DNA of 32,330 nucleotides from Candidatus Altarchaeum sp. (GCA_018260615.1 JAGWDQ010000094.1:1-32330); one strand, 5' to 3'. Numbered from the stretch's first letter, positions 2,452 through 32,330 are shown. Numbers and translations are program-made. Notes: generated by a model not told the origin, from the sequence alone.

Positions 2452-2544
2452 ATGGACCAAAAAGTAAACATAAAGGGTTTGTTATTATTGGGATTTCTCG
2501 GAATTATAATAGGAATTTTAATAGGAATTCAGGATGTTTCTGCA
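2452..2544 (+). other. Signal peptide of the giant protein (aa 1-31)
   Basis: MDQKVNIKGLLLLGFLGIIIGILIGIQDVSA|YSG has a basic N-region, a long hydrophobic core and a V-S-A signal peptidase I motif. Confidence 0.85.
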
Positions 2545-5500
2545 TATTCGGGACTGCTCGGAAGTGAATTCGTTGTTTATCCGCCGGATGACTGGAATAC
2601 AGGGGGAACTTTTAATGCGTTAGCGTATGATAATATTGGTGCCGGAAGACCTTCTGTTGCAGGTGTCATTCTTACTAATAATACTTATTGTGAAGTTGAG
2701 GTTATGCTTGATGACGGGAAATATTATAAAATTTATACCGGAATAAATTTAAAGGAAGGGATGGTGATGGATTTCTATGACGGATGGAATAAGACCAATG
2801 ATAACAGGGTTTATAATCATACCTGTAATTGTCCCGCTACAGGAAGTTGTAATTGTTCCTGCACTACAAACGGTGGTGATGGAGGCGGAAGTAATGCAAA
2901 TAATTGTACTTATAATGGTGGGGGTATCAACATCGGCGGAAAGATAATGCACATTGTTTGTAATCAACCAATTTATACATTTACCGCAGAGGTCGGAAGT
3001 ATGAGAAGTCCGGTGGGAAAATCCGGAAAATTTAATGACAGAAATTACATTATTCATTTTTCTAATAATAATTGGGGTGGCCCCCTTTTTATGCTTATAT
3101 CAACTCAAAGGCCAAATACAACAATAACAATTCAGGAAATAGATCCGACAACGGGAAGCAATATCGGAGCGGCTGAAACATTCAATTTAAGCGGAAACGG
3201 TGCTCAAGAGCCGGGAATTGCAATAAGAACCATGACTCCAAGAGATTTAGGAATGCCTTTAAGGGGCAGTGCATCTACTTCTACATATAAAATTACAGCA
3301 AATGAGCCGGTTTTTGTTGAACAATATCTTAAACATATTGATACTTTAAATTGGCTTGGAGCAGAAGATGACGGGACATTAATGGGAAGAACTTATTTAA
3401 CAGCATCAGAATCTAGTCCAACAGGAGGGGTCATATATAATCCAAACGATTATTCAATAAATGTAAGTGTATATAATAGTAATAGAGGGTATACAACAAC
3501 CGGAAATTTTAATGATTCTATTATTACATGGACTGCTGCTGCAACCTGTAATATTCCCGCGAATAGTTATGGGAGATGTTCTTATAATGGTAACAAAGTG
3601 ATTGTAAAACTAAATTCTACGGACAGATTTCAGTTTATTGGAGGAGATCTAACTGCCCAAAATCTATATTCTCTAAATCATTTTTATACAAGAATTCCTC
3701 CTGTAAATAAAATGGATACAAACTTTAGTACAAGATTCGCTATTGCGCAAGGTCGAGTAGGTCATTATTCAGGGGGTGGCAATCGAGGTGGTGCAGCGTA
3801 TATCTGGCAATTGCAGGGATGTGAAGATAATTTAATAAATTTTGATCCAGGAGCAACAATAACATATGCTGAAACTGCCGGGACAATACCTGCAACATTT
3901 CAGGGAAGGAATACAACTTTAAATTTTACAAATTATGGCAGTATAACACAAACAAGTATTACTGCATGTAACGGAAGTTTTTCTTTATATAATGTTATGT
4001 TTTTAAGTCCTTTGAACGGAGCAGATTACAATTGTGGCAGTATGTTATCTACTTGTAATCCACTTGTGGCTTATTGTAGTGTTTCTTGTACCTGTGCCGA
4101 AAATGGTATTGGTCTTTTTGGGCCAATAACCCTGATGGCAGGAGAACCGTGGGCACTGGATTTAAAAAACGGGAGAATTGCAATGACATGGGATTGGGGT
4201 ATGAGTAGTTTATATAGCATGAATATAAGATATGGAGATAATGGAACAAGCGGGATAATTCGTCTGGGAGGAACAGAGGGATTATATGGAAGTGGAGATG
4301 ATAGTAACATAAAATTTAACTCAACATCTCCGGTTAAATTTTACAGAATCGGACTTGCGGAATGTTCAAATTCCCCGATTGAATCGGAAAGTCCTTATAT
4401 CGTCATTGATTCTGATGCACAATCACCCTTAACGATAGGACAAACGGGCTGGGTAAATTCAACGATAACAAATATCGGAAGCAAGGAGGCAATTGACAAT
4501 ATAATTATTCATGAAATTCCTCCGAATATGGAGTTTATTTCTTCAACATTCAGATTGTTCTTTAAAGATACAACGGACTCAAATTTAACAGACATTACTG
4601 GAAATATAACATTGATACTGGGAAATAATGAAAGCGATTGTAAAAACATGATTACAGATATTCATACTGCAAATTATACAAATCCGGCAGTTGTATGTTA
4701 TTATCAGCAGTATTTTGGCGCCTTAAAGAAAACTTATATTCTTATTAACACATCAACATTTGAAGGAGTAACAACGCAGGATGAAGGAGATAAAGTTGTT
4801 TTCTCATATCGGGCAACATTGCTTGAAGGAGATCCTTCAGGAAAAATTTTTGCATATACCTCTTCAAAAGGACAATATTGTGCACCTTATTTTGAAGGTG
4901 AAACAAGGCCCATAGAGGTATTGGCAATAATTGAAATTTTAGTTCCGTCTTTAACAATTTACAAGGAAATTACACCTTCTATGGTAGGTGTTGGTGACAA
5001 TATAACCGTCAAGGTCGTATTTTATGATTTATCCGGCTTAAACATTACAAATTTAACAATTAAGGATTTTAGTTTTAAAAATTTTACTTATAATGAGGAT
5101 GCAAATTATACGAGAACAGGAGTAAACATTACACGAACAATAACTGAAACAAGAAATACCACAACATATCAGATTATTTCATTTTCAATGTTAAATGAAA
5201 ATGTAAATAACATTTCGGATGCGTGTTCGGAATGTGTTCAAAAAACAAGGGTTTATAATGCCACAAAGGTTTATGCCGGAACCGTTTTGACAGATGTAAT
5301 ATTTAACTACACATCCGCTTTTATAAACAAGACAGGAACACCTGAATATGTATTTAGAAATATTCCTGGAGCTATAATAAACAGCACACAAATTGGAAAT
5401 TGTACATGTTCAAATGGCAATAATTGTACAGGTGATACTAACTGTCAACAAAATTGCGGTTCCGGAACATCATATACTTGCATCTATAATGAAACAAGAA

Positions 5501-8500
5501 TGGATTATTACAATTATCTGATATTTACAATGAAGGCAAATGATACGATATTTCCGGAAAATATGACAAATTGTGTAGAGGAAGGCAGCGTATTAACACT
5601 GAGAAGCGGTAATGGCGCGCCGATAAATTCAACGGCAAGATTCTGTATAAGTCCCCAACCCGGAAATGTTTCTCTAAACAAAACTATGAGCCAGCTAAAC
5701 TTTACTCCCAATGAAACGGCATGGATTAATGTAACAGCCAATGTTTCCCTTGATTTTGTCTCTCCGAGAGTGGAAATTGGTGATAAGCTCCCTTCATGGT
5801 TTGAATTTACAGGAGAAGCATATCTTTACGAATACAACATTTCTTCGAAAAATTATGATTTAATCTGTAACATTTCAGTTAATGGAAATAATTGCTCAAC
5901 ATCAATTTCGGATCCGGTAATAAGTAATGATTATGGAGAATTAAGAAAGATTGTATCCTGGACAATGTTTAATAAATCATCATATAATTACAGAATTCAA
6001 CTAAAGGTTAAGGCATTGGCACATGATTTCTTAAATAATGCTCCAAATATGTCCGAGGAAGATACCAGAACAAATATTGCATTTTCAAAAATTTATTATC
6101 CCGGCGGAGGATACAGATATGATGCGGCATCTTTAAGGGGTTTAATGATTATTCCGCCGGAATTAGGTGTTTATAAAACGATGATTCCGACAAAAAGCAC
6201 ACCATATTATACGAATGACACCATAACATTCGTAGCAACGATTTGCGAATTATCCAATACATCTTCATGGTATGATGTTGAGATTAATGATATTATGGGA
6301 CCGGGACTGGAATATAAAGATGTGGCAAAATGGACTTACTGGAATGGAAGTAGTTATGTTACCTCTGACATTTTCTTGTCAAATTCTTCTGTTACTTGTC
6401 CTCAGGGATTTCAAGAAAGTTCCGGAAATTGTACAAAACTAAATGCTTCTTATCTTTCAAATGAAAATTTAAGTGTGATTTATAAAGGAACATGTGCTTA
6501 TTTGACATTCAAGACAACAGTAAAGGAAGGGACATTACTTGGAAGTTCTTTAAAAAATGATGTGTATGTAAATGTTAGAATGGCGGATCATACGCCTATG
6601 AAGGGTAAGGCTACAACCTACCCTGTGACAGAGTATGAAAATTTAACAATAAATAAGGTAGCAAATACATCTGTTGCTGAACCCGGCGACTTTGTAAATT
6701 TCACAATAAGTATAACAAATAAAGGCAATAAAGATATAAAATATTTAAGAATAACTGACCTGCTTCCACTATATTTTGAATATCAAAGTGGTACCGCATC
6801 ATTTAATTATTACAAAAATGGTTCTGTAACTCCCAATATGACCTTTTCTTTAGATACGAACACTATATTTGGAAATGTTTGCGGGACAGGAATAAATGCT
6901 ATAAATGACAGCGGGCAATTACTTTACTGGAGCGTATGGGAACAAATCGGAGAAAATTTCTCTGCAAATGATACAGTTAAAGTTACATTTACAACAAAAG
7001 TAGTAACAACACCCTGTATGGTTAGTGGTCAGCAGAATGTTACAAACACGGGAAATGCTTATGGATATGTGTGGAACGACAGTAAAAACGATTACGATGG
7101 AATTTATGCGACAATAAGAGCTCCGTGGATTTTGGTTATTCCTCCTGCATACTGGTGTGATGTAAAGGTAGGAAATTTCTTTATTGATAATTCAACAAAC
7201 GAAGGGAATATTGAATATATACATATGAGCGGAGAAGTGAATGGAATTTCCGTTTACAATATAATCCATTACTTTAAATTTGCTCCGAATTATACTGTTA
7301 CTAATATAACAATAGAATACAGAAATCAAACAGGAAGATATTTCTATGCTATTCCGCTATATTGTGCGGATATTTTGGGGAATTCGTCAGTTGGAACAAA
7401 TGTTACACTTTCAAATCATACGGCAAATTATTCAAATCCAAATTGTAGTGCCCTGGCATTATACTCGCATTTAAAAGGAACAAGTATTTATACACATATA
7501 TTTGTAAATTTCACAGGAAATGCAACGGTTTGCAGTTCAAGTGAAGCGTGGGCAGGAGACGGATATATGATTGGATGTGCGGGAGGATGTTATAATCTAA
7601 CACAAAGAGTTCCTCCGTTTCCGGGAATAAATTTAACTAAACATGTCTATGCAAGTTGTGCAGAACCGGGAGATATTGTTAATTATTCCATAACTATGAA
7701 ATTAAATGAAACAACAACGGCAAGAAGTTTAAATATATTTGATGCCTTTTTCTTCGGTTCAAATTATGTTCCTGGTTCAACAAAGATAAATGTTACCTGT
7801 GGTAATGGAAACTCTACTATCTATACCGGTTCAAACTATGAACCCGTTATTACGGGTGCAGCAAACGATGTTATATGGTGGGATTTGAATACGCTTGATA
7901 ACGGTTGTCCTCAATGTAGCGGATGTCCTGATAATACAGAACCATGTGATTATGGTTGTGAGCCATGGAAGCCAAAAATAGGTGTTAACTTCTTCGGTCC
8001 AAATTCAACAATAAATGTCTCATTCCGGATGAAAATAAATTCATCTGTTTCATATCCCAATAGCGACAATAATGAAAACACGGTTCCGGTAACATTTGTT
8101 TATATAACTTCCAAGGGAGAAATTGCATTTTCAGCAACAGGTGCGTTTGAAAAACTACTCGTTTGTGTTCCAAATATAACAGCGAGCAAAATTTCTCCGT
8201 ATGGCGCAGAACCGGGCGATATTGTAAATTTCACGATTTATGTTAATGATACATCGGATTGCGAGTGTCAGCATGTTTATAACACAACAATTGTTGATAC
8301 CTTTACAACGATTCCAAAGACAAATAAGGAACCGTTTATTCCACAAAAGGCGTGGATAAATGGTGTTGAAGTAAGCAGTTGGAATTTAATATGGAATTGT
8401 ATAAGGGATAGCAACAACATTGTCCAAAATTGTACAATTAATTTCTCATATGACCTGAATGATGTTACTGCAAATGGAAATTTAAGTAAATTTAATCATA

Positions 8501-11500
8501 AACAAAATTTAACATTGATAATTCAGGCAAAGATTAATGCTCCTTTAATTACAAACATAACAAATAATGCAACCGTAACTGCTGTAATGGGAGACGGAAC
8601 GCCTTTAAATGCTTCAACAGAAACAAAAACAACGATAGTAGGAAAGAGCAATGTAAGTACCGTTAAAAGTGTAGTTACAGCAAGCGTTTACAGACCAAAG
8701 CAGGATTGCTATGTATTTGATACTTGTTTAACAAGCAATAATGTTGTTGAGCCGGGAGATATTGTTGTTTATAATGTAACAATTACAAACACAGGAACAG
8801 CAACTGCTTTTGATATTTCATTTACGGACTTATTGCCAATTGAATTTAAATATATTGATAATAGCAATGTAAGTGCGGCATTTGTAGGTAAAGAAATACA
8901 TGGTTTGCAGGAATTCCTTACATTTTATGTAGGATATGTGGATAATTCTTCACCAAAATCATTTACCTATAATGTTACTGTAATCTCCGGTGCAAATGAG
9001 GGAATGAACAATAACACCGTCATTGTATCTGGATATGACGGGCTTGGAAGGACAATTCCGAAAGAAGTGAAGCAGGCAAATGTCAGTGTTATAATTCCAA
9101 AAATCAGTGTCAGCAAGACAGCGAATGTTTCACAGGCACAACCGGGCGATTTAATTAAATTTACTTTAAACATTACAACAACCGGAAATGTTTATGATGT
9201 TAATGTTACCGATATATTGCCGGATAATTTTGAGTTAATTCTGCCAACACAGCCAAATTATGCAGGCAAGGATGGAAACATATTAAAGTTTAACATTCCG
9301 AACATAAACGGGCAATATTTAATAAATATAACTTTAAAGGCAACATCAAAGTCACAAACATCATCAAATGTATTCTTTGCGGAAGGAATTTACGGCGACA
9401 ATAAACCGGTAATTAGCGACGATGCAAATGTATGGCTCACAATTGTTAATCCGCAGTTAGATGTAGTTAAAGAAATAACAGGTGTTGTATTAAATGGCGA
9501 TATGCTGACAACAGCTTATAAACTAACCATAAAGAATGTAGGACATGGAACTGCTTATAATGTGTTATTTAAAGATACATTACAGCATGGAAATAATTAT
9601 GTTACCGGAACATTCAATGTTAACGGAACTCTACAAAATCCAAACCCTGCTAATAATATATTAACTTATTCCGTTGGAAATTTACAACAGGGGCAGGAAG
9701 TAAATATAACTTATAATTGTTCGGGAAATTTAAGTGATAGTTCTCCGAGCGGATTACAGGGCGGAATTAATCTTGTTACAGTAAATGCAAGCGATGGTTA
9801 TAAAGAAATTTCAGCGCAGGCAACCGCTTCAACCGGAGCATTGTCGGTTTCAAAAACAAAGAATAAGGATATTATTGAAGCAGGAGAAGGTATGACCTTT
9901 ACAGTAACTCTGAATGCTGTAACAGATTTAACAAATGTTGTTGTTAGTGATACATTGCCGTCTGACTGGAGTTATGTGACAAATAGTGCAACGTTGGATG
10001 GAAGTTCATCTGGTTTTACTGTTGTTTCAACTTCTCCATTAACAATAAATATTGGCACATTATCACAAGGCCCACATACATTAAAATATAATGCAACAGC
10101 GGGATGTAATGCATTAAAGCAGGATATGAATAAAGTTATTGTTAATTACACTTATAATAATGGAAATATTGAGTATAATTTTACTTCAAAGCCGGTTTCT
10201 GTAATTGTTAATGTAAAAGGAAAGCCAATTTTAGTTATTAATAAGCAAGTAAATGCAACTTATGCCGAGCCGGGAGATGTTATTCGGTATTCAATAAATA
10301 TAAGTAATTTAGGAGAGTCAAAGATATTAAATTTGAATATTTCTGATAAATTACCTGTTGGATTTAATTATATAGACGGAAGTTCAAAATTGGATGGAAG
10401 CAGCATAGGAGATCCAACACTAACAGGACAGGTATTAAATTGGACAAGTATTATTGGTGTGTTAAATCCCGGAGAAAGTAAGTTATTGACATTTAATGTA
10501 AATGTAACCTCAACAGCAGATGTATATTCATTAAATACTGTAAATGCTACCGGAATAAGCAATTGCCTGGAATTGGTTAAGGAAGCAGAAATTCAAATAG
10601 AAGTTAGAAAGCCGGAATTAGGTATTCAAAAATCAGTAGATCCAAAGTTTGCAACTATTGGAGATACAATTTATTATACTGTTTCAATCACAAACAACGG
10701 GAAAGGAAAGGCATACAATGTTATTGCAAATGATACACATCTGTCAGGTTTTAACTTTGTAAATTCAACATGTGCAAATGTTCTGGATTGTGATCCGACA
10801 GTAAGCGGAAATACATTGACATGGAATGTCGGAACACTTGAGCCGGGACAAACAGCAGTAATTTTATATTCTATGTATGTGAATTCAAGTGCAGCAGACG
10901 GAACAAATATAAATAATATTTTGCTTAGCTATGATGACAAATCAGGAACAACAAATACAAATTATGACAATGAAACAGTACATATAAATGTAGATTGTGT
11001 ATTAAATTTAACGAAGGAAGTTATAAGCATATCTCCATCCCCCGGAAGCAATAAGGCAGAAATAGGAAGCACAGTAACATATAAATGGACCGTAACAAAA
11101 ATAGGAGATTGCGACGACATACGTGATGTTGTGTTGACGGATAACATTCCAAATGGAGGGGATAATTTCGTCAATAAAACATGTGATGCAACGATAAACA
11201 ACAATGTAATAACATGGAATATTGGATACTTATCTGTACCTGATCCAGTAACCTGTGAGTATTCAATAAGAATAAATTCATCGGCAGATGTTGGCTTATT
11301 TACAAATACAGCAAATGTTAGGGGACAGACCGAACAAGGCGTTAATGTTTCAGATGTGGATAAAGCAGATATATGGATTGTAGGCCCGCCGGTTTTAGCG
11401 GTTGAAAAGCTCGCAAATGTAAGTGAAATCTATCCGGGAGAAAGTGTTTTATTTACAATAATAATAAGAAACAATGGAGAATCATCCCTCTATAATTTAA

Positions 11501-14500
11501 CAGTTGAAGACAGATTACCCGATGGCTTAAGTTTAGGAGGAAGTGCAAAATTAAATGGCGCTGCTTTAAGTGATCCAACGGGATGTCCGAATTGTGTATT
11601 TAATTTACAATCAGCGGGTGCATTAAAACAAAACGATGTATGGGAACTGACATTTAATGTTTCATCATCAACAACTGTTAGCGGAAATTTAACAAATCTT
11701 GCTATTGTAAATGGAACGAGAGCAGATGGAACAACAATAATGCAGGATAATGCAACAAAGACAATAGATGTTTTAACATCAGATATTACTATTGAAAAAT
11801 CTGCTGATAGGTCAAATGCCCAAACAGGAGACACAGTAACATATACAATTGCTGTAAGAAACACAAAAAATGCAGAAATTTCTCTTAACTTTACAGATAT
11901 ATTACCAACAGGATTTAACTATACAGATAACAGCTTACAAAACGCAATGTTTGTAAGTTACACGCATCCAACTCTTAAATTTAATGCAACAATTAAGGCA
12001 GGCCAAATCTTGTTTATCTCATACCAGGTAAAGATAAATTCATCGGCAAACGGAGCATCCACAAACACAATATATGTTGACGGAAAAGATAAAAATGGAA
12101 ATCCGATTCCGACAAAGAATGCGAGCGAAACAGTTAATGTAGGAGCATCTAATATTACCTTAAATAAAGACAGAAATCCGGGTGACGGAATGATAGAAAT
12201 AGGAAGTAAAGTTAATTATACAATAACTATAAACAATACCGGCTCGGTTCCGATATATACTTTAACAATAAAAGACAAGATTCCATCCGGTTTGTTAATT
12301 TTAGGAGTAATAAATTACAGTGATGATACACAGGTAAATAATTCGTTAACGGGAAGTTGTAATAATATAACTAATTATTGTGAATTCAATATTTCGGTTT
12401 TGAATGAAAACAAATATGTTAAATTTATCATAAAAACAAAGGTAATAAGTAACCAGTCAGATAATAACAATCAAATATCTGAAAATTTAGCGAATTTGAC
12501 ATATTACGACGGAGCAGGAAACAGGAGTGATACAAACAAGTCGGCAAATCTATTTACTGTCAAATATCCGGTTATTGAAATATCAAAGGTTTATGTTGAA
12601 GGAACAGACAAACAACCGGGGGACCTTGTGCATTATAATATTTCTATAATTAACAAGGGATTGGGCTTTGCAAATGTTACAATTAATGATACATTTGACA
12701 GCAGTTTGGAAATAATTAACTGGACAAACGGAAGCTGTAGTAGCGTACCATCAAATCCAGAGCAGGTTTCAAACTCATCTTCGGGAAATTTCTATCAATG
12801 GAATTTAACAAAATTACCCGGAAAACCAAATGCATTGACTCAGGATGTTTGCTGGAATATTTATATAACTGCAAAGGTTAAATCAGATGATTTCTATTAC
12901 AATAAAACAAGAATTGATAACAATACGGTGAATGTTTCATGGACAGATAACAACGGCACGACAAGAACAACAACCAATACTTCAGCAGGAATTGATATTC
13001 TGACTGCAAATGTGACAATAAACAAAACTTCAACGCCTGAAAGGGTAAATGTTTCGCCGGGAGATAATGTAATTTATATAATTGAGGTTAAAAATAGAGG
13101 AAACGGAACTGCTTATAACATACAAATTAACGATACATTGCCAGAAGGATTAAAAAATATAACTTGCAGTTATACTAAAAATGCTTCTGGAACACTAACA
13201 CCTTTACCCTGTTCATGCAATGGAAGAACCTGCCAGTTCAATATTTCAAAGATGGAAGCAAATACATACTGGAACATAACAATAAATACAACAGTTAATT
13301 CAAGTGCAACAGAAATAGCAGGAAACAATGCAACAATTTACTGGAAGGATAATGAAAGTTACAACAATACAACCACAACTGCAAATACATCATCATTAGG
13401 CGTTTTACATCCGAATGTTACAATAAGCAAGATTTCAAATCCTGAAAGTGGAAATGTTGAACCTGGAGCTTTTGTAAATTATACAATTATAATAACTAAT
13501 GTTGGGAATGGAACAGCATACCATATAAGCATTAATGATACAATCCCGGGTGGATTAAATATAATTTCATGGAGCAATACAACAAATGCATCCGCAACAG
13601 TTAATGGTTTATGTAATAATGATACTAACAGAAATCCATGTCAATTTAATATTTCGGTAATGCAAGCAAATACATACTGGAACATAACAATTACTACAAA
13701 GGTTTCTTCAAGTGCAACAGAAATAGCAGGGAACAATGCAACAATTTACTGGAAGGATAATGAAAGTTACAGCAATACAACCACATCAGATACAACATCT
13801 CCGTTAGGAGTTTTGAAAGGAAATGTAACAATACGCAAAACAAGGCAGGGAGTAGGTTGTGTTGAAGTAGGTGACACAATAACTTATATTATTAATGTAA
13901 GTAATTTAGGAAACGGAACCGCCTACAATGTAAATGTAAAAGATATATTGCCAGACGGAACAAAATTTGATACTTCTTCTTCCGCATATCCTGGTAATTG
14001 TAGTAATTACCTAAGCTGTAGCGAGTCACCATCAGAGTCAGGGAATATTTCATGTGATGTTCAAGGAGGAGGCGCACCTGTGGGGCAGTTAAATACAGGT
14101 TGTTGGGCAGGTGCACGGCTTAAAGTAAAGGTTCTTCCCACAGCAGGAAGTAACATTTCAAACAATACGGCATTCCTGAATTACACCGATAATTATACTT
14201 ATGTAAATGACACAGAAAATTCATCATGGAGCGAGATATGTGTAAACAAATCACATATTGTTCTTCATAAAGCACCGCCAGAACCTCCATCATCAGAACC
14301 CGGACACGAATTTAATTATACAATAACAGTAAAGAATGAAGGTACGGGAACTGCTTATAATGTAAACGTTAATGATACAATTCCGGATAATTGTTCTTTT
14401 GTTTCCCAGCAATCAACTGGAAATCCAACTTTCAGTTTAAGTTCAATCGGGGATAAAGCATATTGGGTATATAATAATATTTCTTCTCAAGATAATACTC

Positions 14501-17500
14501 GAACCATAACTTTAACAATAAAGTGTAATTCAAATGCATCAATTGTAAGAAATACTGCTTATGCAAACTATACGACAAAGGAATATAATGCGACAACGGG
14601 AGCAGGAATTTATAATACATCTTCAAATGAAACAACTGTAATTATAAATAAACCGAATATTACAGTAATAAAAAGCAAATCACTTCCATGGCCACATGAT
14701 CCGCTATGGGTAGGCGATACAATCACTTATGAAATAAATGTTAAGGAAAATGGAGGGGCGCACGCAAATGTTACGGTTAATGATATTATTCCGGATGGAT
14801 TGGTGCTTATAAGCTGTGATATTGCTGGAAGTTACACCAATTGTGATTCTAATGGAAATACATTAACCTGGAACATACGACTGAATCCTTCTCAGAGTAT
14901 TGCAATATATCCTCAATTCAGGGTAAATTCATCAATAAACGCAGATAAAAATAACGGATTCAATAACACAGTAACATGGTCATGGAAGGATGATAATAGC
15001 ACTGTTTATTATCCGTCAGGTAATTCATCAGTTACAAATGTTACTGTTTGCAGGCCAAATTTAACAATTTCAATTGTCTGTGATAAAAAATATGTGTATG
15101 ATGGCACATCAACAATCTGCACAGTCCATGTCAGCAATTCAGAAGATTGTCCTGCTTATAATACGATTGTAAATGTTCCTTTTGATTTGTCTTCCTTTAC
15201 ATGTGCTAATCCCACATCTCCGGGAAGTTGTGAAACAGGAAACGTAGTATGGTATTTGGGAGAGTTTGAGAGTAAGGGCTTTAAAGAATTAAATTTCACT
15301 TTAACATCATTTAATGATGTTTCAACGCAAACAACTCATAACATAACAGCTTATCTTAATTATAATGATAGTTCTAATTCGGACTATGCACGACATTATT
15401 CAAAGAATGATACATGGCAGCTGATACAGATTCAGAAACCAAATGTGTCAGCAGAGAAAGTAATAAATCCAAGATATCCACAGCCGGGAGACGATGTTGT
15501 TTATACAATCACAGTGAAAAATTTTGCATCATCGCTATATACAATACAAAACATTACCGATGTACTCCCGGTAAATTGGACAGAATGTATAAATTCTACT
15601 GTTTCACATTCAAATGCAACTACAAATGCAACACTTGCATCATGGAGTGTTTCCTGGGACACAGTAACAAGAACCTGTAGATTGAGCTTCAACAATTTGG
15701 TTCCGTTAAACCAAAACGAGAATATAATATGGACATTCCACACATCTCCAAATGCAAGTACGCTTGAAGGAACATATTATGAAGACCAGCCCGGATATTG
15801 CGGAAATACAACGGGGGATAGTATAAACTGTCATGATACACCCTCTGATGGAGCATTGCCAAACGGCGTGTATGTAATGTATCCGATGGCATCAGTTCAA
15901 AAGGATGGTCCTGCAAAAGCCTTTGTAAATGATATTGTAGAATATACATTGACAATAAGAGCCGACTATTTAACCTCTTACAGTTTAAATGTTAAAGATG
16001 AACTTCCGGTGGGCTTTATTTATCAGTCCCATACATGCAGATATAAAAACAACAATTCCGATTGCACAGTATTATTAAGTAATAACAACAACCTAATTAC
16101 CGGCTCTTTCTCAAAACTTGATACCGGAGATGCAATAGTAATAAAAATTTATGCATTGGTTACAGACGCTGCGGATCAGATTTCAAAAAATAATGTTTAT
16201 CTCAATTATTCAGATCATTCGGGAGCACATATTAAATACTCTCATGATTCAAAAACAACTGTTGTACCTTATGGGACATTTGTTACAAATATTATTAAAG
16301 AGTTCTCTCCACAGAGCAAGTTCTGCTTTAATGGACAGAATGCAACAATAATTTTAAGGGTTTCAACAACATCAAACGACCCAAGAGCAACGGCATACAA
16401 TATATCTGTATGGGATAACCTGGGGAATCTTGGCTATGCAGGTAACTGCAAGTATAAAGACAGCAGAGGAAATTCATGTAGTTGTAATCCAAGTGTAACC
16501 AGTGGCAGGGTAGAATTAAATTACACAAATAATGCCATTCTTTGTTCGGATATGATTAAACAGCAGAAAGCAGGAGAATGGTTTGAAATTTCTTATGATG
16601 TCAATGCCAGTGCGGAAGGTACTTATCCTGATATTGGTTATGTTAAATTTTATGATTACAATAATACTGCAAATATTTCCTCTTATCCCGCATCTATTTA
16701 TGCAAAGAATTGTTCAATAATGATAACAAAGACAAAAATTTCCCCTGAAAATATAACGCCCTGTGCGGATGTGATCTTTAATATTACAATTAAGAATCTG
16801 GCATCTGTAACCATGCGAAATGTTGAATTCGGAGATATTTATCCGTTAAACTGGCAAAATATAAGTTATGTTTGTGGAAGTGGAGGCGCATGTCAGGACA
16901 ACGGGGATCTTCTGAATGGAACGGCGACTGATTTATCTCCTGGCGAGCAATATTCATTTACATTAACTTTAAGACCGAATACCTCGGCAAATAATGTACT
17001 CGGAACAATAAACTTGGCAAGGGTTTTTGCAAGAAATTCAACTTCTTACAGCGACGAAACAAAGCTTCCTGTGGAAATTTTAGCACAAACCCCAAATGTT
17101 TATAAGGTCTTAAACTCAAGTAATAATTCAGGAATTGCCGACTACGGAAATAATGTAACCTTAACGATAAAGGTTCAGAATCCTTCGCAGGGAAATATGG
17201 TGATTAAAAGCATCACAGATATAATCCCTGAAAATTTCACATTTGTAACCTCGGATTATTCACAAAACTGCACATACAATAGTACAACACGAATTTTAAA
17301 TTGTACTCTAAATATTAATCTTCTGCCGGGAAGCATATTTAATTTCAGTTACATAATTTCTCCGACATCAAATGTTTCAGAGGGAATTTATCAGTTGAAT
17401 ATATGGGACAAGGCAAATGTAACAACAGCAGATGCATGTGGAAAAGAAACAACAACGCCTTCGGTATATTCGCCTGATATTTTAGAAATCAGAGCTCCGC

Positions 17501-20500
17501 ATCTCGTAATTTCAAAATCAGCAAATATTTCATCTCTTGAACCCGGAAATTATGTGAATTATACAATAACAATAGAAAATATACAAACAGGAAGCAAGGG
17601 AACTGCACACAATATAACAGTCAAGGACGAGATTCCCATACAATTTGAATTTATAAGCGCCTCGGCAGCAAAAGGAGGTAATTCGCTGGCAGTAAATCAC
17701 GATTGTTCATCCTCTAATAATTTATGCACATTTAATATTTCCGTTGCTCTTGCTCCGCAGGAAGTGGTAACTATGAGAATCAAAGTACTGGCAAAGTCCG
17801 TATTAACAGATACATCAACAGATAATTATGCAAATGTAACCGGAAAATACGGGGATAACTCTCAAATGAATACAACTAACACAACACCGCCCGCACATGT
17901 AACAATACTCGCATCCCCGATATTGACCATAACAAAACAAGAGCAGAGTTCAACAGCCGAACCAGGACAGCCCTTTTCTTATACAATAAAAGTTTCAAAC
18001 AATTACAACACAACAGCATATAATGTTACTGTTTATGATAATATTCCCGGAAACTGTACTTATATAAGTAATTCGTCTTCGCCATCAGCAGATCGTAGCT
18101 GGAATATAAGCAATACTTATTACTGGAACAAATCACAATTGTCTCCACACAATGACTGGACAATAACCTTGACAATTAAGTGTAATTCAAATGTTACAAC
18201 AGTAAATAATACGGTAAATGTAAGTTATAGTGATGGTTATCAATATATCAATAATCAGTCAAATTCAACGGGCACATATAATGATAAGGTAACAATTACA
18301 AAGCCAACAGTGACTGTAACAAAGACAAGAACAACGCCACCTGGAAATGTAAATATAGGAGGTACAATAACCTATACTTTAAATGTAAATCCAGGAGGAC
18401 ATGCAAATGTTACTCTAACTGATAAAGTTCCGAATGGGCTAATATATGATTCATGTACATCTGCATCAGGACAACCCACATGCAGCCACAATTCAACAAC
18501 AAATATAACAACATGGAATGTTTATTCCAACACATCTGTCTCATTTACAGTTACCTATAAAGTTACAACTTATGCATATCCGGAATTCAATAACACAGTT
18601 AATTACACATGGAAGGATGATACAGGTGGGGAATATGGTCCAAATTCAACAACCTCTATGCCAACAAATGTTTGCAGACCAAATTTAACTTTAACTATTA
18701 CATGCAGCAGGCCGGAAATTTATCAGGGATTAAACGAAATTTGCACAATTACAATAACAAATAATGCAAATTGTTCGGCATATAATGTCAGCGTTGTTTC
18801 GGATGTTCCGGTTAACTTCAAATGCGATCAGGCAGGAGGAGATGCTACCGGAATATGTAATGCAAACAATGCCACATGGTTTATAAGTCAGATTTCAGAA
18901 TATGGAACAAAAATTTTAAATTATACAATGACGGTTGAAAATGATACTAATGTAAATATAACTACACAGATCAATGCAAATGCAACTTACTGGGATCATT
19001 ATGATATAATTTATGGGCAAGATAATTATGTTGCACCCAATTCAACAACAGTAAAGCAATTGCCAAAGCCGAATATAGTTATCTATAAAGATATAAATCC
19101 GTTTATTGCACAGCCGGGAGAAAATGTTGTTTATTCAATAATTGTCAGAAATGACGGCAATTCAACAATTTCTTTGAATAACATAACTGATATGTTGCCT
19201 CCAAACTGGAACGGATGCAATACAACCGGAATTTACGACCAATACGGAGGATTCATTAACAGCGGCCAATATAATATCACTCAATCCGGGGATACATGTA
19301 TAGTAAATTTCACCAATCTAATTTCAGTTTCACCCGGAAAAAATGTTACATGGAAATTTAATTCCTCTGCAAAGCCAAGTGCAGACAAGGGCGCAAACAA
19401 CGATACTCCGTCTGCATGCTATGTTTTGGCAAATCAGACGGTATGTCCGGACGGGCTGGCAGGAAAAGTTGAGATTGTCTATCCGACAGCAAAAGTGATT
19501 AAACAATTTAGTACAACAACTGCAAAGACAGGAATGCAAGTTAATTTTACATTGACATTCTATGATATGATATATGATGTATATAATTTAACATTTAATG
19601 ACACACTTCCATACGGATTAAAATATGTCTCCTCTGCTTTTGAGGGGAATTGTAATGGCTGTACATTATCTGTTTCAACCGCTCCATGTATTGAGGATGC
19701 AGGTAAGACATGCGACTTTATAAATGGAAGTATCGGAAATATGACGCGGGGAAATAATGGCAAGCTAACAGTAACCGTAAATGTTACGGAGAATGTGAGT
19801 GCGGTAAACAGAAATACAGGTTATATATCGTGGCAGGACTATTCCGGAGGCATCGTACAAAATGATACTAACGATGATACTTTATATGTTCCTGTTATGC
19901 CCGCACAAACATTTATTGAAAAATCATTCTATCCGGAAAACAAGGTCTGTTTTAATGCAATGAATTTAACTGTAAAATTAAAGGTATTTACATTAGGAAC
20001 AGACCCGAGAGCAAAGAGTTATAATATTAAAATTACAGACACATTTGAAGGAATGAGTTATATTGATGGAACATGTATTCAAATTTATAGTAATGGCTCA
20101 AGCAGGGCATGTCCATCTGTTATGGATTATGGAAACGGAACAGTAGAATTCATCAATTTAGGAACTCAAAAGGTTGATGACTACTTTATAGTACAATTTA
20201 ATACTAAAATTTGGACCGAAGGGATGAAAAATGATACGGCAATAGTTGAATATTATAATGCATCTTCCGGAGGCGCGAAATTTACCGCAAGTACATCTCC
20301 TGCAAAAATAGGAATTTTGGCAAAGTCATGTAGTTTGGTAGCGGTTAAAAGTGATGAAAATGTATCTCCGTGTGAAGAGGTTACTTATACAATAACAATA
20401 ACAAATTACGCAGGGGAAAAGATGAGAGATATAACTATTATTGATACATATCCACCAGGGTGGAATTTCTCTCACAGTAGTAGTAGCAGCAGCGTGGATC

Positions 20501-23500
20501 CAAATTGTCAAAATACGGGGACTTATGCTGTTTGTCATCCACTTGATAATAATAATAATGAAATCGAATTAATGCCATCAGGATATCCGGGAGACAGCAT
20601 ATCATTTGATATTATTTTACTGCCAAATACAAGCGCTGGAGCATCGTCGGGACAGAATGTAGTTAAGGTTAGTACAATGGGAAGTACAACCAATAAGATT
20701 TATGAAGACGAGATGTCGGTTCCGGCAAATATTATTTTGTCCCAACCATCTGTCTATAAAGGAATATTTTCCGGTGATAAAGCAGATTATGGAGATAACA
20801 TAACGGTGGAAATCACAATAAATAATCCAAGTTCTGGAGATATAACAGTTGAAAAAATTACGGATATAATCCCGCAAAAGTACAATGTCCATCTTCCGGT
20901 AGGCAGCATGCTTAATTGTTCCTTTGATAATAGCAGTAGAGTAATGACCTGCAATGTTAGTATTGTCATTACAAAAGGAGGAAGTGCTAAATTTTATTAC
21001 AATATTACTCCTACATCAGCATTAAACTGCCCGATGGATGGATGCGAATTAAATATTGCCAATTTGACACCTACAATAACAAGTAGAGATAATTGCGGAA
21101 AGGACTACACAACACAAGGATTTTCATCAGGGGTTGTAAAGGTTTATCCGCCGATATTAACAGCAACAAAAACAGCAAGTACCTCACCGGTGCAACCGGG
21201 ACAAACATTCAATTACACTATAACAATAAAGAATGAGCAAACAAATGCAAAAGGAACTGCTTATAATGTAACCGTAAATGACGAAATTCCATCACAGTTA
21301 GGATATATAACTGCTGTATCAAGTAAAGGAACATTAAGTATAAGCAATGTAAGCAATAATTACACATTTACAACAGATGCTTCTCTCGGCCCAGGAGACA
21401 CTATGACAATAACAATTACTGTCAAAGCAAAATCATACCCTTCAAATACAACAGTAACAAACAAAGCAACAATTTATGCAAAATACGGCGACAACAGCAA
21501 CATTTCACCAGTGACAACAAATGAAGTAAATGTAACTATATTATCAAAGCCGGTATTAGATATTACAAAAACACGCTGGAATACATCATCAGAACCGGGA
21601 CATGAATTTAGTTATACTATTACCGTAACAAATACATACCAGGCAACAGCACATAATTTAATTGTAAATGATACAATTCCGGATAACTGCGAATATGTTA
21701 GTTCAAGTCCATCATATTCAGGTGTAACTGGAAAGACATATTCGTGGTTTAAGTTAGAATTAGGAATGGGCGACAATTGGCAAATAACCTTAACAATTAA
21801 ATGTAATTCATCTGCTTATAGTGTTCTAAATACCGCAAGTTTGAATTATGTTGATGGTTCGGGAAGTCCGGGAACAAATTCAAATACATCGGATGCAGTT
21901 GAAATTAAACATCCTCATGTTTCAGTAAACAAAACATTACAAACACCAGGAACAATTAGTGTAGGAAACGTTATACAATATCAAATAACAGTTAAAGAAA
22001 CAGGAGGAGCGCACGCAAATGTTACCGTAAGAGATGCAATTCCACAAGGATTAAAGTTTAATAATTGCAGTGGCGGTGACAATTGTTACAATACAACTAA
22101 TGAAGTGATATGGACATTACGACTAAATCCATCAGACACCAAGTATTTAACAGTGAACTATAAGGTTACAACCAATGCATCCGTCTTTAACAATACAGTA
22201 AATGCAACCTGGATAGATGATGCAAATGGACCGTATGGAACGGATGGGTCAACCAATGCTACATCAGAAACAGCAAGTGTTTGCAAACCAAATGTTACAA
22301 TCAGAATTGAATGTGAAAAACCGTATGTTTATAAAGATGTTCAGGAGGTCTGCCACATTTTTGTTGAAAACCATGCAAATTGCACCGCTTATAATACAAC
22401 AGTTAATGTTCCAATCCCAACGAACTTTGAATGTCAGGTAGCAACAGGAGGAAATTGTATTGCAAATAATGCCACATGGAATGTAGGAACACTTACAGGA
22501 GGACAACTAAAAGTATTAAATTTAACAATGAATGTTGTAAATGATACTAATGTAAATATAACCCATAACATTACAGCATATCTTGAATACAGAGATTATC
22601 CGTTGCCCGATGCAGAAAACCTTGGAAAATACTATTATGGAAATGACACAACAACCGTAATACAATTACCAAAACCGGATATAAGTATAATCAAGAGCGT
22701 AAATCCATATTACAGTGAAAGAGGACAGGAAGTTACTTATACAATAAACATGACAAACAATGGAAATTCAACGATACAAGTGCTAAACATTACGGACGAA
22801 CTTCCAGAGAATTGGAGTTATTGTTATGATTCAGGCATTTCAGCACCCTTATACGGAAATGTTGCACATGAATTATTAAATACATCAAGAAATTGCATTG
22901 CTGTTATCAATCAAACGACAAATGTAATTACTATTAATCCGGGAGAATCATTAATATGGACATTCAAATCGGTTCCTTTGAATAATGCAGCAGGAAGTAA
23001 AGATGGAATAGCACATACAGATACTCCCTCGGCATTTATAAATACCTCGGGAAATGTTCAGGAAGTTCAGGGTTTAGTAGGAAGGGCAGTTGTAAAGTAT
23101 CCCGATATGCAGATACAAAAGAATGGAAAGGAAATAGGAGCGGTTAATGATGTCTTTAATTACACCATAATTGTAACAAATAAAGATATGCCTGCTTATA
23201 ATGTGGTAGTTGAGGATACACTTCCCGGTGGATTTGGTTATCTGAATACTTATCTTGATGCGTGTTTAAATTGTTCATTGATATCAGCAACAAACGGAAT
23301 AATCAAGGTTGATGCAGGAAATTTCACTTCAAACCAGGTAAAGAAAATTTATGTGGAAGTCAATATTACAAATAATTCGGCCGACCATAATATTAACCAG
23401 GCAAATGTTACCTACAAGGATTATTCAGGAACAGTTGAAGATACACAAAACGATACCTTTGATACACGGGTTCCTGTAGGTCCGTTTATTGTAAAGATAA

Positions 23501-26500
23501 CAAAAACTTTAGATCCGCAAAACAAAATATGTTATAATGTTCAAAATATGTCAGTAACATTAAGAGTAGAAGTCATAAGTCAGGATCCAAGAGCAAAAGC
23601 ATACAATATAAATGTAACTGATGAGATTACTGCTCAATTTACAGATTATGTTTCCGGCTCAGGAATTATATGTGATCCAAACTGTCATACATTAGAACCA
23701 AATAAGACCAATAATGCAACTGGATTTGTATTAAACTGGAACACAAATAAGGAGTTAAGGACAGATAACTATTTTGAACTGAAATTTACTTTGAATTCAA
23801 GCAATGAAGAAACAGTTAGAGATACGGCATTCGTTGAATTTGTAAATGCAAGTGTTAATGGAACCTACTTTAAAGAAAATTCAACAGAAAAATCATACCT
23901 TACAAAGAATTGCACACTCGCAGTAACAAAAACAGGAAAGGACAGAGTAAAACCATGTGAAAATGCAACATTCAATATAACGATTTACAATGAAGGAAGT
24001 GAAGTTATGAGGGATGTGTACTTTAGAGATACATTCCCGTCTAAATGGACTTATGTGAGTTCAAGTGACGCATCAGATTCAAGAATAACATGCAATACAT
24101 CAACAATTTCATCAGGATATGTTGATTGTGAATTAGATCAGTTAGTGCCTGGTGAAAGTCATTCATGGGCAATCATACTAAAACCAGATACTACACAAGG
24201 AGTTGATACAGGAATAGAGCAGACAAATGTTTTGGGCGTAGATGCAATTGGAGTTACTTCAAATAATACTTATCATGATGGTACAAAGAAAACAGTAATA
24301 GTTGATAAGACAGAAGCAGGATTATATAAAGAAATTTTAGACACGCAAGCGGATTATGGAGATAATATCAGAGTAAGGATAACAGTAAGTAATAAAGGAA
24401 ATTCAACAATAACATTAACAAAGATTATTGATACAATTCCTGCAAATTTCAACATTTCACTGCCATCGGGTTCAAGTTGCAGTCTTTCTTCACAGGACAT
24501 ATCTACCTTAAGGACATTAACCTGCACTTATGATGTTAAAATTAATGCGTCCGGAACAACAGGAGATAGTTATGAGTTTATCTATAACATTATTCCAACC
24601 TCAAATTTAAGTATATTGACGGATAAAGAAACATATTACTTAAACGCAGCAACAGTAACGACAAAAGACGAATGTAATAACGAAACAACCGACTTAACAA
24701 CAACACCCGCACAGTCAATAACTGTTTATCCGCCGATATTAAAAGCAAGCAAGAGTGCAAATAAGATACAGCTTGAGCTGGGAGAAACATTAACTTATAC
24801 TATAACGATAAAGAACGAACAGACAAATGCAAAAGGAACTGCTTATAATGTAATTGTTTCAGATAATATTCCCTCAAACTTTGAGTATATTAATGCCACA
24901 TTGGATGGAAATCCAATACCAAATTTAAGTTCAAATCCATACACATTTAATGTCGGTAAATTTACTCCCTCAACAACAAGGTCTCTTGTAATAACCGTAA
25001 GAGCAATTTCTTCCGGAGATACAATAAATTTTGCAACTATTAACGGAACTTATGGAGATAACAGCAGTATTTCATCAAAGGACTCAAACAATGTTTCTGT
25101 TAAGGTTTTAGGAGCGCCGCAAATGTCTGTTAGTAAGGAACAGAATGTGACAAGCAGTGTAGAACCAGGGGAATTAATTAAATACACAATAACAGTTAAT
25201 AATTTACAAAATGTTACATCTTATAATGTTAATATAACCGATCAAATTCCGCAATATACTGACTTTAACCGCACTAACGATACTGCTTGTACATATAATT
25301 CATCAACAGGAATAGTTAATTGTACAAAGGCACAAATGCTGGGCTTGGAGATATGGAATATTGAAATTGTGGTTAAAGTTACAAGTAATGCTACATCAGT
25401 AACAAATACCGCAAATTTAACATGGATGGATGGGTTAAATAATAATTTCAGTACTACAAATACAACGACGCCAATTAATGTTAAACATCCGAATGTAACA
25501 ATAAGTAAAGAAATTAAGACGCCTGTAAAAAGTTTCTACGCACCAGGAGATGCAATTATTTATCAGGTAAATATTAAAAATATAGGGGACGGAACTGCAT
25601 ACAATGTAAATGTTACAGATACAATTCCATCAGGATTAATTTACAACACCTCATCTGGACTTACAGCTGTTCAACCAACGATAAGCTATACTTCAACAGA
25701 AATTACTTTGTTCTTTGACAAAATTGGAGTGGGACAAACAGGAGATACTTTAATTTACTTTATTGTTAACACAACCGCAACTGATACATCTTTGAACAAT
25801 ACCGTAAATGTAACATATAAAGATGGTTACGGAAAAGAATTTAATGCGAGCAATTCAACATCAAATGCAAATCAAACAACAATTTGTCATCCAAATGTTT
25901 CAATAAGCATAAATGCAAATCCATCAACGACATTCTATCAAGGACCGGAAATTTTATTCACGATAAATGTTGATCTGTTAACACTATGTTCAGCACACGA
26001 TGTTGAAATTTGCGTAACATTGCCTGATGAAGTTAACTTTATTGCAGGTTCTGCGAGTCCGCAGCAATCAAGCATATCCCCGTTATGTTTCAGTTTAGGC
26101 GATATTTCAGGAGATGCAGCAATAACATTTAACGGAAAAGCAAAGAATGTATCAGCAATAACAATAAGAAATGTCACAATTAACGGAACATTCAATGATG
26201 GAATTAATACACCATTTAACACAAGTGATAATCGCACAGAAGTAACAATATTGCCTCCACCAGATGTTTATGTTGAAAAATCATGGACGCCAAACAGAAA
26301 TTCACCTGATTTCTTTGAACCGGGAGAAACAGTAAATATAACTTTAACAGTAAAGAACAATGGAGATAATGCAATAAATGTGACAACATTAACAGACAAC
26401 CACACACAATATTTGGAAATTTTAAGGACAATTTCTGTAACGGGACCATCAGGAGCAATTAGTTACACAGAAGTTTCAAATACATCAACGAACTACACAA

Positions 26501-29500
26501 TCAGCATTACCCCAACAGTTCTGAATAAAGGACAACAAATTGTTTGGGTTATTGAGGCAAAGATAAAGAAAGAAGCAGTTAATGATTTAGCAAATGCTGG
26601 AACAGATGCAGGAATTGCTTGTTATGTGCCTTTAGTTGAAAATGCAAACCAAACATGCACAATTCCAATTCCAGCGACAATTCCAACACAAGAGCCGGCA
26701 TTTAAGGTAGAGAAGCGCGACGTAACAGGAGGATCAGGAAAATCACCATACAATATAGGAGAAAATGTTACTTATGAAATCAGTGTTTATGCGATAAATC
26801 CGTCAACAAATTCAAGACCTGTTTTAAATGTATTTATCAATGATACTTTGCCAGAGGGCTTTACTTATGTGAGTAATTCGGCAATATGTAATAATACACA
26901 ATGCATTCCGACAATAGACGGAAGTAATCTCATATTTGGACCATTTAACATAACTAACGATGCAAGCAATAAATTTGTAATTAAATTTAATGCAACGATT
27001 GGAAAGAATGCATCAACTCCATCAAAGAATTTGGCAACAGGTAAAGGGGAGGATTATGCAGGAAATGAAGTTAATAACACTGCGCCGGACGGAGAAGCAT
27101 CGGTAAATGTATTAGTTCCACAGCCAGTTATGAATATAGAAAAAGATGTTCCACCGAAGTCATATATAGATACCAATGTTACAGTTATATTGAAAGTAAC
27201 AAACGGAGGCGGAACAAGTGAGGCAACCGCTTACAATGTTTCAGTAAAGGATATTCTTCCATCTGAAATTAATTATGTCGCTGGAACATCACAAATAACA
27301 TTGCCGAATGGAACAATTATAAGTCAGGACCCGGTAATTGGTGGAAATATATTAACATGGCAATACTTTACAATTCCATCAGCAGCGTCAGGAAACAATT
27401 CATTAACAATAGAATTTAAAGTCACTTCAAGTACAACAGGAACATTCACAAATGTTGCTAATGTAACTGCTTTGGATGTTACTGATAAGTTATGTTCCGC
27501 ATGTAATAAGAGCGATACTAAAGAAATGTTCTTTGGAATGTCAAATCTGACAGTTATACCTACAAATAACATTGCTACAACACCTTGTAAAGATGCAGAA
27601 ACAAATATAACAATAACAAATAAAGGAAACAATTTAACAAATGTAAATCTAACTATTGAAGTTCCAACTGGTTGGAGCATAGTTAATTTAACAGGGGATA
27701 ATGCATCTAAGATATCTGGTAATATGTGGACACTTTCAGATCTTCCGACAAATTCAAGCATCACATTGACATTGACTGTGAAAGCAAATTCCTCAACAGC
27801 ACTTGATTCCGAAAATATAAATGTAAGAGTTGATGGCTTTGATGTTATAAAGAACGGCACGGTTACAGAGACCACTATAATTAAGGCAAACTATATAAAA
27901 CCAAGTCCACAATTGAACAAGGTGATGCCGCAGGCAGCATCGGAAGTTGAACCAGGAGATATAATACAAATATGTATGGTTATAACAAATCCACAATCAG
28001 GAAGCGCACCATTTATGGTAACGAATATCAGCGATAAGATTCCGGATGGATTTGAATTGGTTGTTGGAAGTAGTACAGGTTGTACCTTCTACGATAACGA
28101 TACTGGAGGATATGCAGAATGTACTCCGAATGTGCACCTTAACAAAGGTCAAAACTGGCAGGCGTGTTACAGCATAAAGGCAACATCAAATGTTCCAAAT
28201 CCGATAATTTATAAGGTCGCAAATGTAACATTTGAGGATGATTGTGGAAATGGACAAGCAAGCTCAGCACCAATAAACGACAATCAAGGTCCGTACGACG
28301 GAACATTCTACAAACCATCATTATCAGCAACAAAGTCAATTTCGCCATCAAAACAAACATTTATCGCAGGAGCAGACACAATAACTTACAATATAACAAT
28401 AACAAATGCAAATCAACCGAAAGGAACCGCACATAATGTTACAATAACAGATACAATTCCAGAATATCTGAACTGCTCAACATCTCCTGCAACAATTGAC
28501 AACAAGGCATCCGGCTTAAATAACGCAACATACACATGGAAATTTGATAACATAAGTCCAAATGATGCAGAGACAATAACCTTAACTTGCCAGATTTTAC
28601 CGCCTGCAAACGGAACAGCAAATTTCACGAATGTTGCGTTCGTTAATTACACAGATGGTTATGGAACTCCACAGGATCCGAAGAATGGAACTGCATCACA
28701 AATCACTATTTACGGTGTTTCCACTTTACAAATCACAAAAGTAGAGTTCAATGTAACACAATCAATGGAACCAGGAGATGTTTATATTTACACTTTAAGA
28801 GCAACAAATACAGGTACGGCGCCAGCGTATAATTTAATTATAAACGATACATTGGACACCTGTGTAGAAATACAAGGCATAACAAATTCAACAAACGAAA
28901 CAACTGCTGTTATGAATGGAGGTTGCATAAACAATGTCTGTCAGTGGGATTTAAGTAAATTATCAGAAGGTAATTACTGGGAAGTAAACATTACAGTTAA
29001 GATAACCTCAAACTGTACGACAATTCCAATAAACACAGCAAATCTTAAATATGCAGCAGCAAATGGCACAGAATACTCAACAAATAGAAGTACTCAGCAG
29101 CCAATCATAGTTCATCATCCAAATGTAACAATAAGTAAAGAAATTAAGACACCTGTAAAAAGTTTCTACGCACCAGGAGATGCAATTATTTATCAGGTAA
29201 ATATTAAAAATATAGGGGACGGAACTGCATACAATGTAAATGTTACAGATACAATTCCATCAGGATTAATTTACAACACCTCATCTGGACTTACAGCTGT
29301 TCAACCAACGATAAGCTATACTTCAACAGAAATTACTTTGTTCTTTGACAAAATTGGAGTGGGACAAACAGGAGATACTTTAATTTACTTTATTGTTAAC
29401 ACAACCGCAACTGATACATCTTTGAACAATACCGTAAATGTAACATATAAAGATGGTTACGGAAAAGAATTTAATGCGAGCAATTCAACATCAAATGCAA

Positions 29501-32330: not shown

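Follow-up and report, generated by a model that had tools for sequence, protein, structure and literature searches.

Does a nine-domain super-repeat in a giant archaeal protein mark a structural period, or does it record how the gene grew? The question arises from a 32,330-nt stretch of Candidatus Altarchaeum sp. DNA (GCA_018260615.1 JAGWDQ010000094.1:1-32330; hereafter the window), in which a giant open reading frame (ORF) with a long array of CLIPPER domains (PF01345) stays open to the last nucleotide. CLIPPER is the recent new name of the DUF11 family (PMC12617251). An earlier note on this DNA had proposed that the domains cycle through nine types in fixed order from 13.8 kb, in the manner of titin, and that nine domains span a structural period of ~40 nm. 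We confirm that the periodicity is real, also beyond an exact duplicate that the array contains, and we consider it likely that the array arose when an old, conserved cassette of several domains was duplicated repeatedly, as a block and in register, within a fibrillar-adhesin-like stalk. On this account nine is a contingent number rather than a conserved one.

Nine domain types recur in fixed order

Cutting the giant protein into domains with a self-trained hidden Markov model (HMM) yielded 82 consecutive CLIPPER domains (D1 to D82) of 113-171 amino acids (aa) each, in an ORF that is incomplete at the C-terminus. PF01345 matches the protein in 19 + 28 stretches (E = 2.8e-149 and 7e-225). The typed array, D22-D66 (14242-32330), comprises 45 domains, five units in the phase T2 to T9 followed by T1 (T1 to T9 being the nine types). 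D67, the first domain past a scaffold gap at the window end, matches no type, and neither D1-D20 nor D67-D82 match the specialised types. The fixed order described in the earlier note thus stands, although its start does not, since D21 at 13810 is not type 1. The array is laid out as follows.

4384-13809, plus strand: D1-D20, CLIPPER domains matching no specialised type
13810-14241, plus strand: D21, T2/T3-like, outside the cycle
14242-17487, plus strand: unit 1, D22-D29, types 2-9
17488-21141, plus strand: unit 2, D30-D38, types 1-9
21142-24723, plus strand: unit 3, D39-D47, types 1-9 (the modelled unit)
24724-28305, plus strand: unit 4, D48-D56, the most diverged
28306-31935, plus strand: unit 5, D57-D65, of which D59-D65 are identical to D50-D56
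31936-32330, plus strand: D66, a copy identical to D57, truncated at the window end and the gap
15046-15429, 18670-19059, 22279-22665, 25882-26250 and 29512-29880, plus strand: the type-4 domains D24, D33, D42, D51 and D60
15430-17487, 19060-21141, 22666-24723, 26251-28305 and 29881-31935, plus strand: the core cassette T5-T9 of units 1-5

To quantify the period we used global pairwise identity among domains 21-58, leaving out the second exact copy. Mean domain identity was 0.353 at lag 9, 0.332 at lag 18 and 0.297 at lag 27, compared with 0.25-0.27 at the remaining lags. When domain order was permuted, none of 20,000 shuffles reached the value observed at lags 9, 18 and 27 (z = 14). The best partner lay at a multiple of nine for 29 of the 38 domains, and neighbouring domains were ~26% identical. 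An all-versus-all comparison therefore shows the 9-periodic off-diagonal pattern predicted in the earlier note, and the signal remains with the second copy removed.

Two further approaches agree that domains resemble their counterparts at the same position more than their neighbours. With the tested unit left out of training, type HMMs recovered the domain's own position in 34 of 36 cases, the exceptions being D21 (T2/T3-like) and D54 (a tie). A maximum-likelihood domain tree placed T3, T4, T5, T7, T8 and T9 each in a single clade and required 9 label changes, versus 28 with shuffled labels. Unit 4 falls outside units 1-3 in most type clades, and its identity to them is 0.21-0.35 except in T1 (0.41-0.53). 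The closest units vary by type (within 17488-25107, T1 of units 3 and 4 is 0.53 identical, and T2 of units 1 and 3 is 0.48 identical), which may reflect old exchange between units, or mosaicism.

The signature motifs listed in the earlier note fared unevenly. Both the type-4 motif C(R/K/H)PN..I.I and the type-8 PC motif are present in every unit. The type-7 DPRA and K-x-C-x-N motifs hold in units 1-3 but fail in units 4 and 5; in type 9, D-x-C occurs in every unit whereas ADYG is confined to units 1-3 and missing from units 4 and 5.

Most domains keep a putative isopeptide lock

Taken singly from unit 3, eight of the nine types score above the PF01345 gathering threshold of 24.6 bits (T1 52.0, T2 60.8, T3 42.3, T4 37.5, T5 38.0, T6 31.8, T8 40.8 and T9 27.8), and T7 gives no match. 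A T2 domain aligned by sequence to the crystal structure 9IFR (E = 6.6e-4) with the Lys and Asp in register. At the aligned columns of the Lys/Asp/Asn isopeptide triad, K/D(E)/N(D) occurs in 53 of 82 domains, so most stalk domains keep the residues of an intramolecular isopeptide lock. The triad is present in T2 and T3 of every unit, and a complete triad is absent from T4 and T8 throughout. In T4 all three triad residues are replaced in five of five units, and six Cys are conserved in units 1-3. Some members of the CLIPPER family lack the triad (PMC12617251). The fold of the family is a CnaA-like immunoglobulin beta-sandwich.

We also modelled unit 3 with AlphaFold2, using the five units as alignment. 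The model contained nine all-beta blocks with a mean predicted local distance difference test score (pLDDT) of 70.8 and a predicted template modelling score (pTM) of 0.35. Because of this pTM, unit length and inter-domain geometry are unreadable from the model, and the structure prediction proposed in the earlier note yields no period length. Foldseek searches with the nine-domain model returned only generic multi-immunoglobulin (Ig) proteins (TM 0.1-0.2).

One recent and several ancient block duplications

The array contains two identical blocks of 3,179 nt, with zero mismatches, at an offset of 3,630 nt or nine domains. The following features delimit them.

25522-28700, plus strand: identical block, copy 1, 3,179 nt, types 3-9 plus type 1
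28701-29151, plus strand: spacer between the blocks, 451 nt, D58, T2-like
29152-32330, plus strand: identical block, copy 2, 3,179 nt, ending at the gap
Contig positions 32331-32430: scaffold gap of 100 N, directly after the window, where the second identical block also ends

The earlier note had the newest exact duplication spanning nine domains. The offset is indeed nine, but the identity covers only eight. The ninth pair, D49 and D58, shares 57% DNA identity versus 54% for shuffled sequence, meaning that the two are unrelated at the DNA level, and the 451-nt spacer is also unrelated at that level to the stretch past the gap. A clean nine-domain tandem duplication is ruled out by this differing ninth domain; gene conversion between two older units, or an eight-domain duplication, fits better. 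At least two copies of the block must exist, because the unique spacer is flanked by the block end on its left and the block start on its right. Since the short-read scaffold breaks at the second copy, copy number and the true identity between copies cannot be read from it.

The other units are far older. Between units the proportion of synonymous differences (pS) is 0.63-0.70, the synonymous divergence (dS) is 1.4-2.0, which is saturated, and the ratio of nonsynonymous to synonymous divergence (dN/dS) is 0.33-0.54. The saturated synonymous sites indicate that these units are ancient; their DNA identity amounts to 60-77%, in patches. With unit 4 lying outside units 1-3 and one recent copy, the nine-domain block has, as the earlier note had supposed, been the unit of growth, and this at least four times.

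A second assembly of the same gene (L011) matches the window at 99.3% DNA identity over 15311-20354 and 20610-21473 and reproduces the junctions of units 1 and 2 and of units 2 and 3. The 0.7% nucleotide difference over 5.9 kb consists of 9 synonymous and 25 non-synonymous changes. With 25 of 34 differences altering the protein between 15311 and 21473, a rough dN/dS is ~0.8, which suggests that, over short time scales, the stalk surface is weakly constrained or diversifying.

One reading of the recent copy is that the stalk varies in length within the population, as in Periscope Proteins, with nine-domain steps tuning the reach of an N-terminal head. It is compatible with block duplication and would give the recent copy a function today. 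Arrays of this sort define the Periscope Proteins (PMC8201768), the 3,179-nt block recurs intact at a 3,630-nt offset, and the assembly breaks exactly at the block end, as it would with an ambiguous or heterogeneous copy number. Set against this, no more than two copies can be seen, divergence among the older units is far too great for present recombination, and the strain comparison with L011 spans 15311-21473 only, outside the identical blocks. We hold this reading to be possible, though on balance doubtful.

An ordered cassette in a second Altiarchaeota family

The earlier note suggested looking for the same period in homologues from related genomes. Searches of three same-genus genomes showed the repeat to be absent, with generic domain matches of ~30% only, and their giant CLIPPER ORFs have no lag-9 signal (seen for G003, and for the other giant ORF of the source genome, G000). 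With unit 3 as query, a representative search gave 150 giant CLIPPER arrays, and T4, T5, T7, T8 or T9 was confidently assigned in none of them. Scans of genome contigs and metagenome contigs with a T7-T9 alignment found no relatives, and a single-sequence T7-T9 search of a 5.8-billion-protein set returned one protein only (P0003; 1,682 aa, types 5-9 and 1-7). We rejected P0003 as an independent homologue: it is the same gene in another assembly (98.75% aa and 99.3% DNA identity; source 'Candidatus Altiarchaeales archaeon HGW-Altiarch...') and supports the assembly, not conservation. A profile search (A3) gave 40 matches, and the ordered cassette occurred in none of the 39 new ones.

Profile searches of all 61 genomes of the phylum identified one other carrier of the cassette (G060), a metagenome-assembled genome (MAG) from another family that is 74% complete, with relevant contigs at ~40% GC; the cassette was not found in the other 59. 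One of its contigs (C38), which is ORF throughout (1,851 aa), reads T6-T7-T8-T9-T1-T5-T6-T7-T8-T9-T3. This is the core cassette twice, in the same order as in the window and with a period of six (T5-T6-T7-T8-T9-T1); 8 of 10 transitions are in order, compared with 0-2 in each of 39 control arrays. A second contig (C268) reads ...T3-T6-T5-T6-T7-T8-T9-T1-T2-T5.... The giant protein on C268 (L023, from 3871) has a different N-terminus, with a signal or anchor helix, one CLIPPER-like domain and a segment with a D-x-S-x-S motif resembling von Willebrand factor A domains.

When window and G060 copies are aligned, PC in T8 and a Trp and D-x-C in T9 are invariant, and a C-S-x-C motif is common to the unit-4 T7 and the G060 copies. 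A quick tree nested G060 domains within the T5, T8 and T9 clades and grouped G060 T6 and T7 with unit 4, apart from units 1-3 (Shimodaira-Hasegawa-like approximate likelihood ratio test, SH-aLRT, 82-94). Unit 4 is the window unit closest to the G060 cassette. The ordered cassette is thus old, with type-specific features kept across two Altiarchaeota families and the period not kept, and the core, T5-T9 (with T1), predates this array. Because core order and type-specific motifs are kept in another family, the domains are not interchangeable spacers, and we infer a specialised cassette with a function of its own.

Stalk growth and the meaning of the period

How common are such periods in the family? 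The same lag profile, computed for 105 further giant CLIPPER arrays of 2,500 aa or more with no fewer than 18 domains, all taken from the representative search, revealed a higher-order period in 41, ranging from 2 to 15 domains. The smallest peak lag was 2 in 16 proteins, 3 in six, 4 in five, 6 in three, 7 in two, 8 in three, 9 in one and 10-15 in five. Multi-domain block duplication is therefore a common mode of growth in the family. Domain repeats in general often expand by several domains at once, up to nine (Bjorklund et al. 2006, PMC1553488). Distinctive here is the depth of type differentiation, with neighbours 26% identical, T7 below the Pfam cut-off and T4 without its triad.

We therefore favour growth by whole blocks. 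An ancestral ordered run of differentiated domains would have been duplicated once, and unequal homologous recombination inside the gene, the mechanism that we infer, would keep the nine-domain register through every later expansion or gene conversion; these later events would stay in register because DNA homology then exists at lag nine only. At least three old duplication events, with saturated synonymous sites, and one recent event, with 3.2 kb identical, would account for the array. Like known fibrillar adhesins, the protein has a signal peptide and a long stalk of tandem Ig-like domains, and its role would be that of a secreted surface fibre. The gene also grows by single domains, as two adjacent duplicates indicate. 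D19 and D20 (window 12997-13809) are an older single-domain tandem duplicate with 66% aa identity, and D76 and D77, past the gap (L012; aa 11090-11328 of the joined protein), are 97% identical.

Several observations weigh against block duplication as the whole account. PC in T8, D-x-C in T9 and C-S-x-C in T7 (unit 4 and G060) persist through family-level divergence, and there is zero domain gain or loss in any unit; such motif survival and constant unit size would also be expected if the arrangement itself were under selection. The recent copy, with its differing ninth domain, departs from a clean tandem and may stem from gene conversion or from an assembler's reuse of one contig. Only one other assembly covers part of the gene, and the G060 genome is 74% complete. 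No adhesive domain or anchor was identified in the protein, whose N-terminus is without a family and whose C-terminus runs off the contig.

If the nine-domain period had been selected to match a physical period (the pitch of a helix, a register for bundling or a ruler for partner binding), as the earlier note proposed, several of these features would follow. Nine differentiated types keep their specific features through deep divergence, all five units hold exactly nine domains, part of the order is kept in G060, and the triad-less, Cys-rich T4 sits at the same position in every unit; titin offers a precedent in its 11-domain C-zone repeat of ~43 nm (PMC10665226). The period in G060 is nonetheless six, not nine, searches of three same-genus genomes did not recover the repeat, CLIPPER arrays commonly have periods of 2-15 domains, and the array has no known periodic partner. 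In-register recombination would, moreover, yield a constant period without selection. We judge selection on the period to be improbable and the ~40-nm structural period to be unsupported, while the ordered super-repeat of nine distinguishable types on which the likeness to titin was based survives.

It is very unlikely that the assembler or scaffolder created the second identical block, or the unit order, as an artefact. The second copy does stop at the 100-N gap with a 55-nt overlap, the source is a MAG of 148 contigs, and reuse of one collapsed contig would yield perfect identity. Yet the 451-nt unique spacer, with a block end on its left and a block start on its right, places at least two copies in some genome, the periodicity persists without the duplicate, and the independent assembly (L011) matches 15311-21473 at 99.3%.

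The most far-reaching idea is that T5-T9 (with T1) form a regularly spaced binding or assembly module and that the protein is a periodic scaffold or ruler for a surface superstructure. A low-probability lead to such a structure in this lineage is the barbed-wire region of the altiarchaeal hami, whose prickle triplets have a period of ~47 nm (PMC4460559). Nine extended domains of ~134 aa would measure ~35-45 nm, numerically near the hami period, and a megadalton, cross-linked, glycosylated protein could have escaped notice on the gels by which the 97-120 kDa hamus subunit was identified. What hami are made of outside Ca. A. hamiconexum is unsettled (PMC4975002), and a search of four genus genomes, all incomplete, did not find PF05123 (S_layer_N), a family reported for the hamus protein. 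With a period of six in G060 and about five units visible, we regard this as a long shot.

Comparison with known super-repeats and stalks

The closest structural analogues are the titin A-band, with its 7-domain D-zone and 11-domain C-zone (~43 nm) repeats, and the 7-module super-repeat of nebulin. The likeness lies in fixed-order repeats of beta-sandwich domains, in same-position domains that are closer than neighbours, and in serial block duplication (PMC10665226, PMC1553488). Titin differs in combining two folds (Ig and fibronectin type III), whereas the archaeal protein uses one fold family. The 11-domain titin repeat is matched to the ~43-nm thick-filament period and the MyBP-C stripes (PMC10665226), while the archaeal array has no known partner. 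Titin A-band super-repeats are also described as its best conserved (PMC10665226); in contrast, the archaeal period varies (9 versus 6), and the repeat was found in a single species, with a partial cassette in one further genome.

CLIPPER fibrillar-adhesin stalks (9IFR, PMC12617251) resemble the protein in the triad at aligned positions, the signal peptide and the long tandem stalk, and archaeal CLIPPER stalks were already known (PMC12617251). The CLIPPER study describes tandem repeats without ordered super-repeats of differentiated types (PMC12617251), unlike what we find here. In contrast to typical CLIPPER stalks, T4 lacks the triad in every unit, T7 falls below the Pfam cut-off, and the protein exceeds 12,000 aa without an identified adhesive head or sorting signal.

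The autocorrelation signature is the one reported by Bjorklund et al. 2006 (PMC1553488), in which several domains are duplicated at once, often mid-array. That survey focused on eukaryotic proteomes; the present case is archaeal, its units are far more diverged (25-45% identity) and, unlike in those cases, archaeal families have part of the domain order in common. Periscope Proteins (SasG, Rib and Sgo_0707; PMC8201768) share the recent, near-identical stalk repeat and a possible length change by intragenic recombination. Their adjacent domains are highly similar, whereas here adjacent domains are ~26% identical and the recombining unit would be eight to nine different domains. In a limited literature search, no super-repeat in a prokaryotic adhesin or archaeal protein was found among the top-ranked papers.

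The array is a clear prokaryotic, archaeal case of a titin-style differentiated super-repeat, and it shows giant stalks growing by whole blocks, in register. A cassette of five to six domains ordered across two Altiarchaeota families suggests stalk domains with roles of their own. In T4 the isopeptide lock would have been lost and cysteines gained, so that locked and unlocked domains alternate in a periodic pattern. Should the cassette prove to bind or assemble, it would bear on how these subsurface archaea build unusual surface structures; as the evidence stands, the array mainly documents a mode of gene growth.

The giant gene and its flanks

The contig is 39,648 nt long, the window being its first 32,330 nt, and belongs to a 2.2-Mb MAG (Altiarchaeota, 148 contigs, 87% complete). 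The 55 nt to the left of the 100-N gap equal the 55 nt to its right, a k-mer overlap that maintains the reading frame. Joined on this overlap, the two sides encode at least 12,347 aa and are still open at the contig end, which makes the protein one of the larger archaeal proteins seen. The parts outside the array are as follows.

2452-32330, plus strand: giant ORF, window part, 9,959 aa, stop-free up to the window end
2452-2544, plus strand: hydrophobic Sec-type signal peptide MDQKVNIKGLLLLGFLGIIIGILIGIQDVSA, read from the translation without a predictor
2545-4383, plus strand: unique N-terminal region of about 610 aa, without a Pfam family and without relatives

The N-terminal 660 aa likewise match no Pfam family and no relatives, and the head has no paralogue within the genome. 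Past the last CLIPPER domain, two segments with a weak likeness to Ig domains are followed by a Pro/Ala-rich tract and G-A-K-V repeats. The last ~600 nt of the contig (L012, G000:C94:32431-39648) hold the tract, which is G+C-rich, and then the repeats, within which the contig stops; this C-terminal stretch has a weak glycine-zipper match (E = 0.004), and no other contig continues the repeats. Across the whole ORF there are 678 N-x-S/T sequons versus 275 +/- 13 in shuffles of the same composition, a 2.5-fold enrichment that points to very dense N-glycosylation of the giant protein.

Upstream, a divergently oriented ORF of 454 aa (534-1898, minus strand) matches no Pfam family at E <= 1. Neither this gene nor the N-terminus or C-terminus of the giant protein has a match within the fetched G060 contigs. 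Between the two genes lies a 54-nt A/T-rich tandem repeat (2016-2353; 6.4 copies, 97% matches) whose units include TATA-like runs. Within the duplicated block, two identical 183-aa antisense ORFs (27324-27875 and 30954-31505, minus strand) are probably chance frames in Asn/Thr-rich coding sequence.

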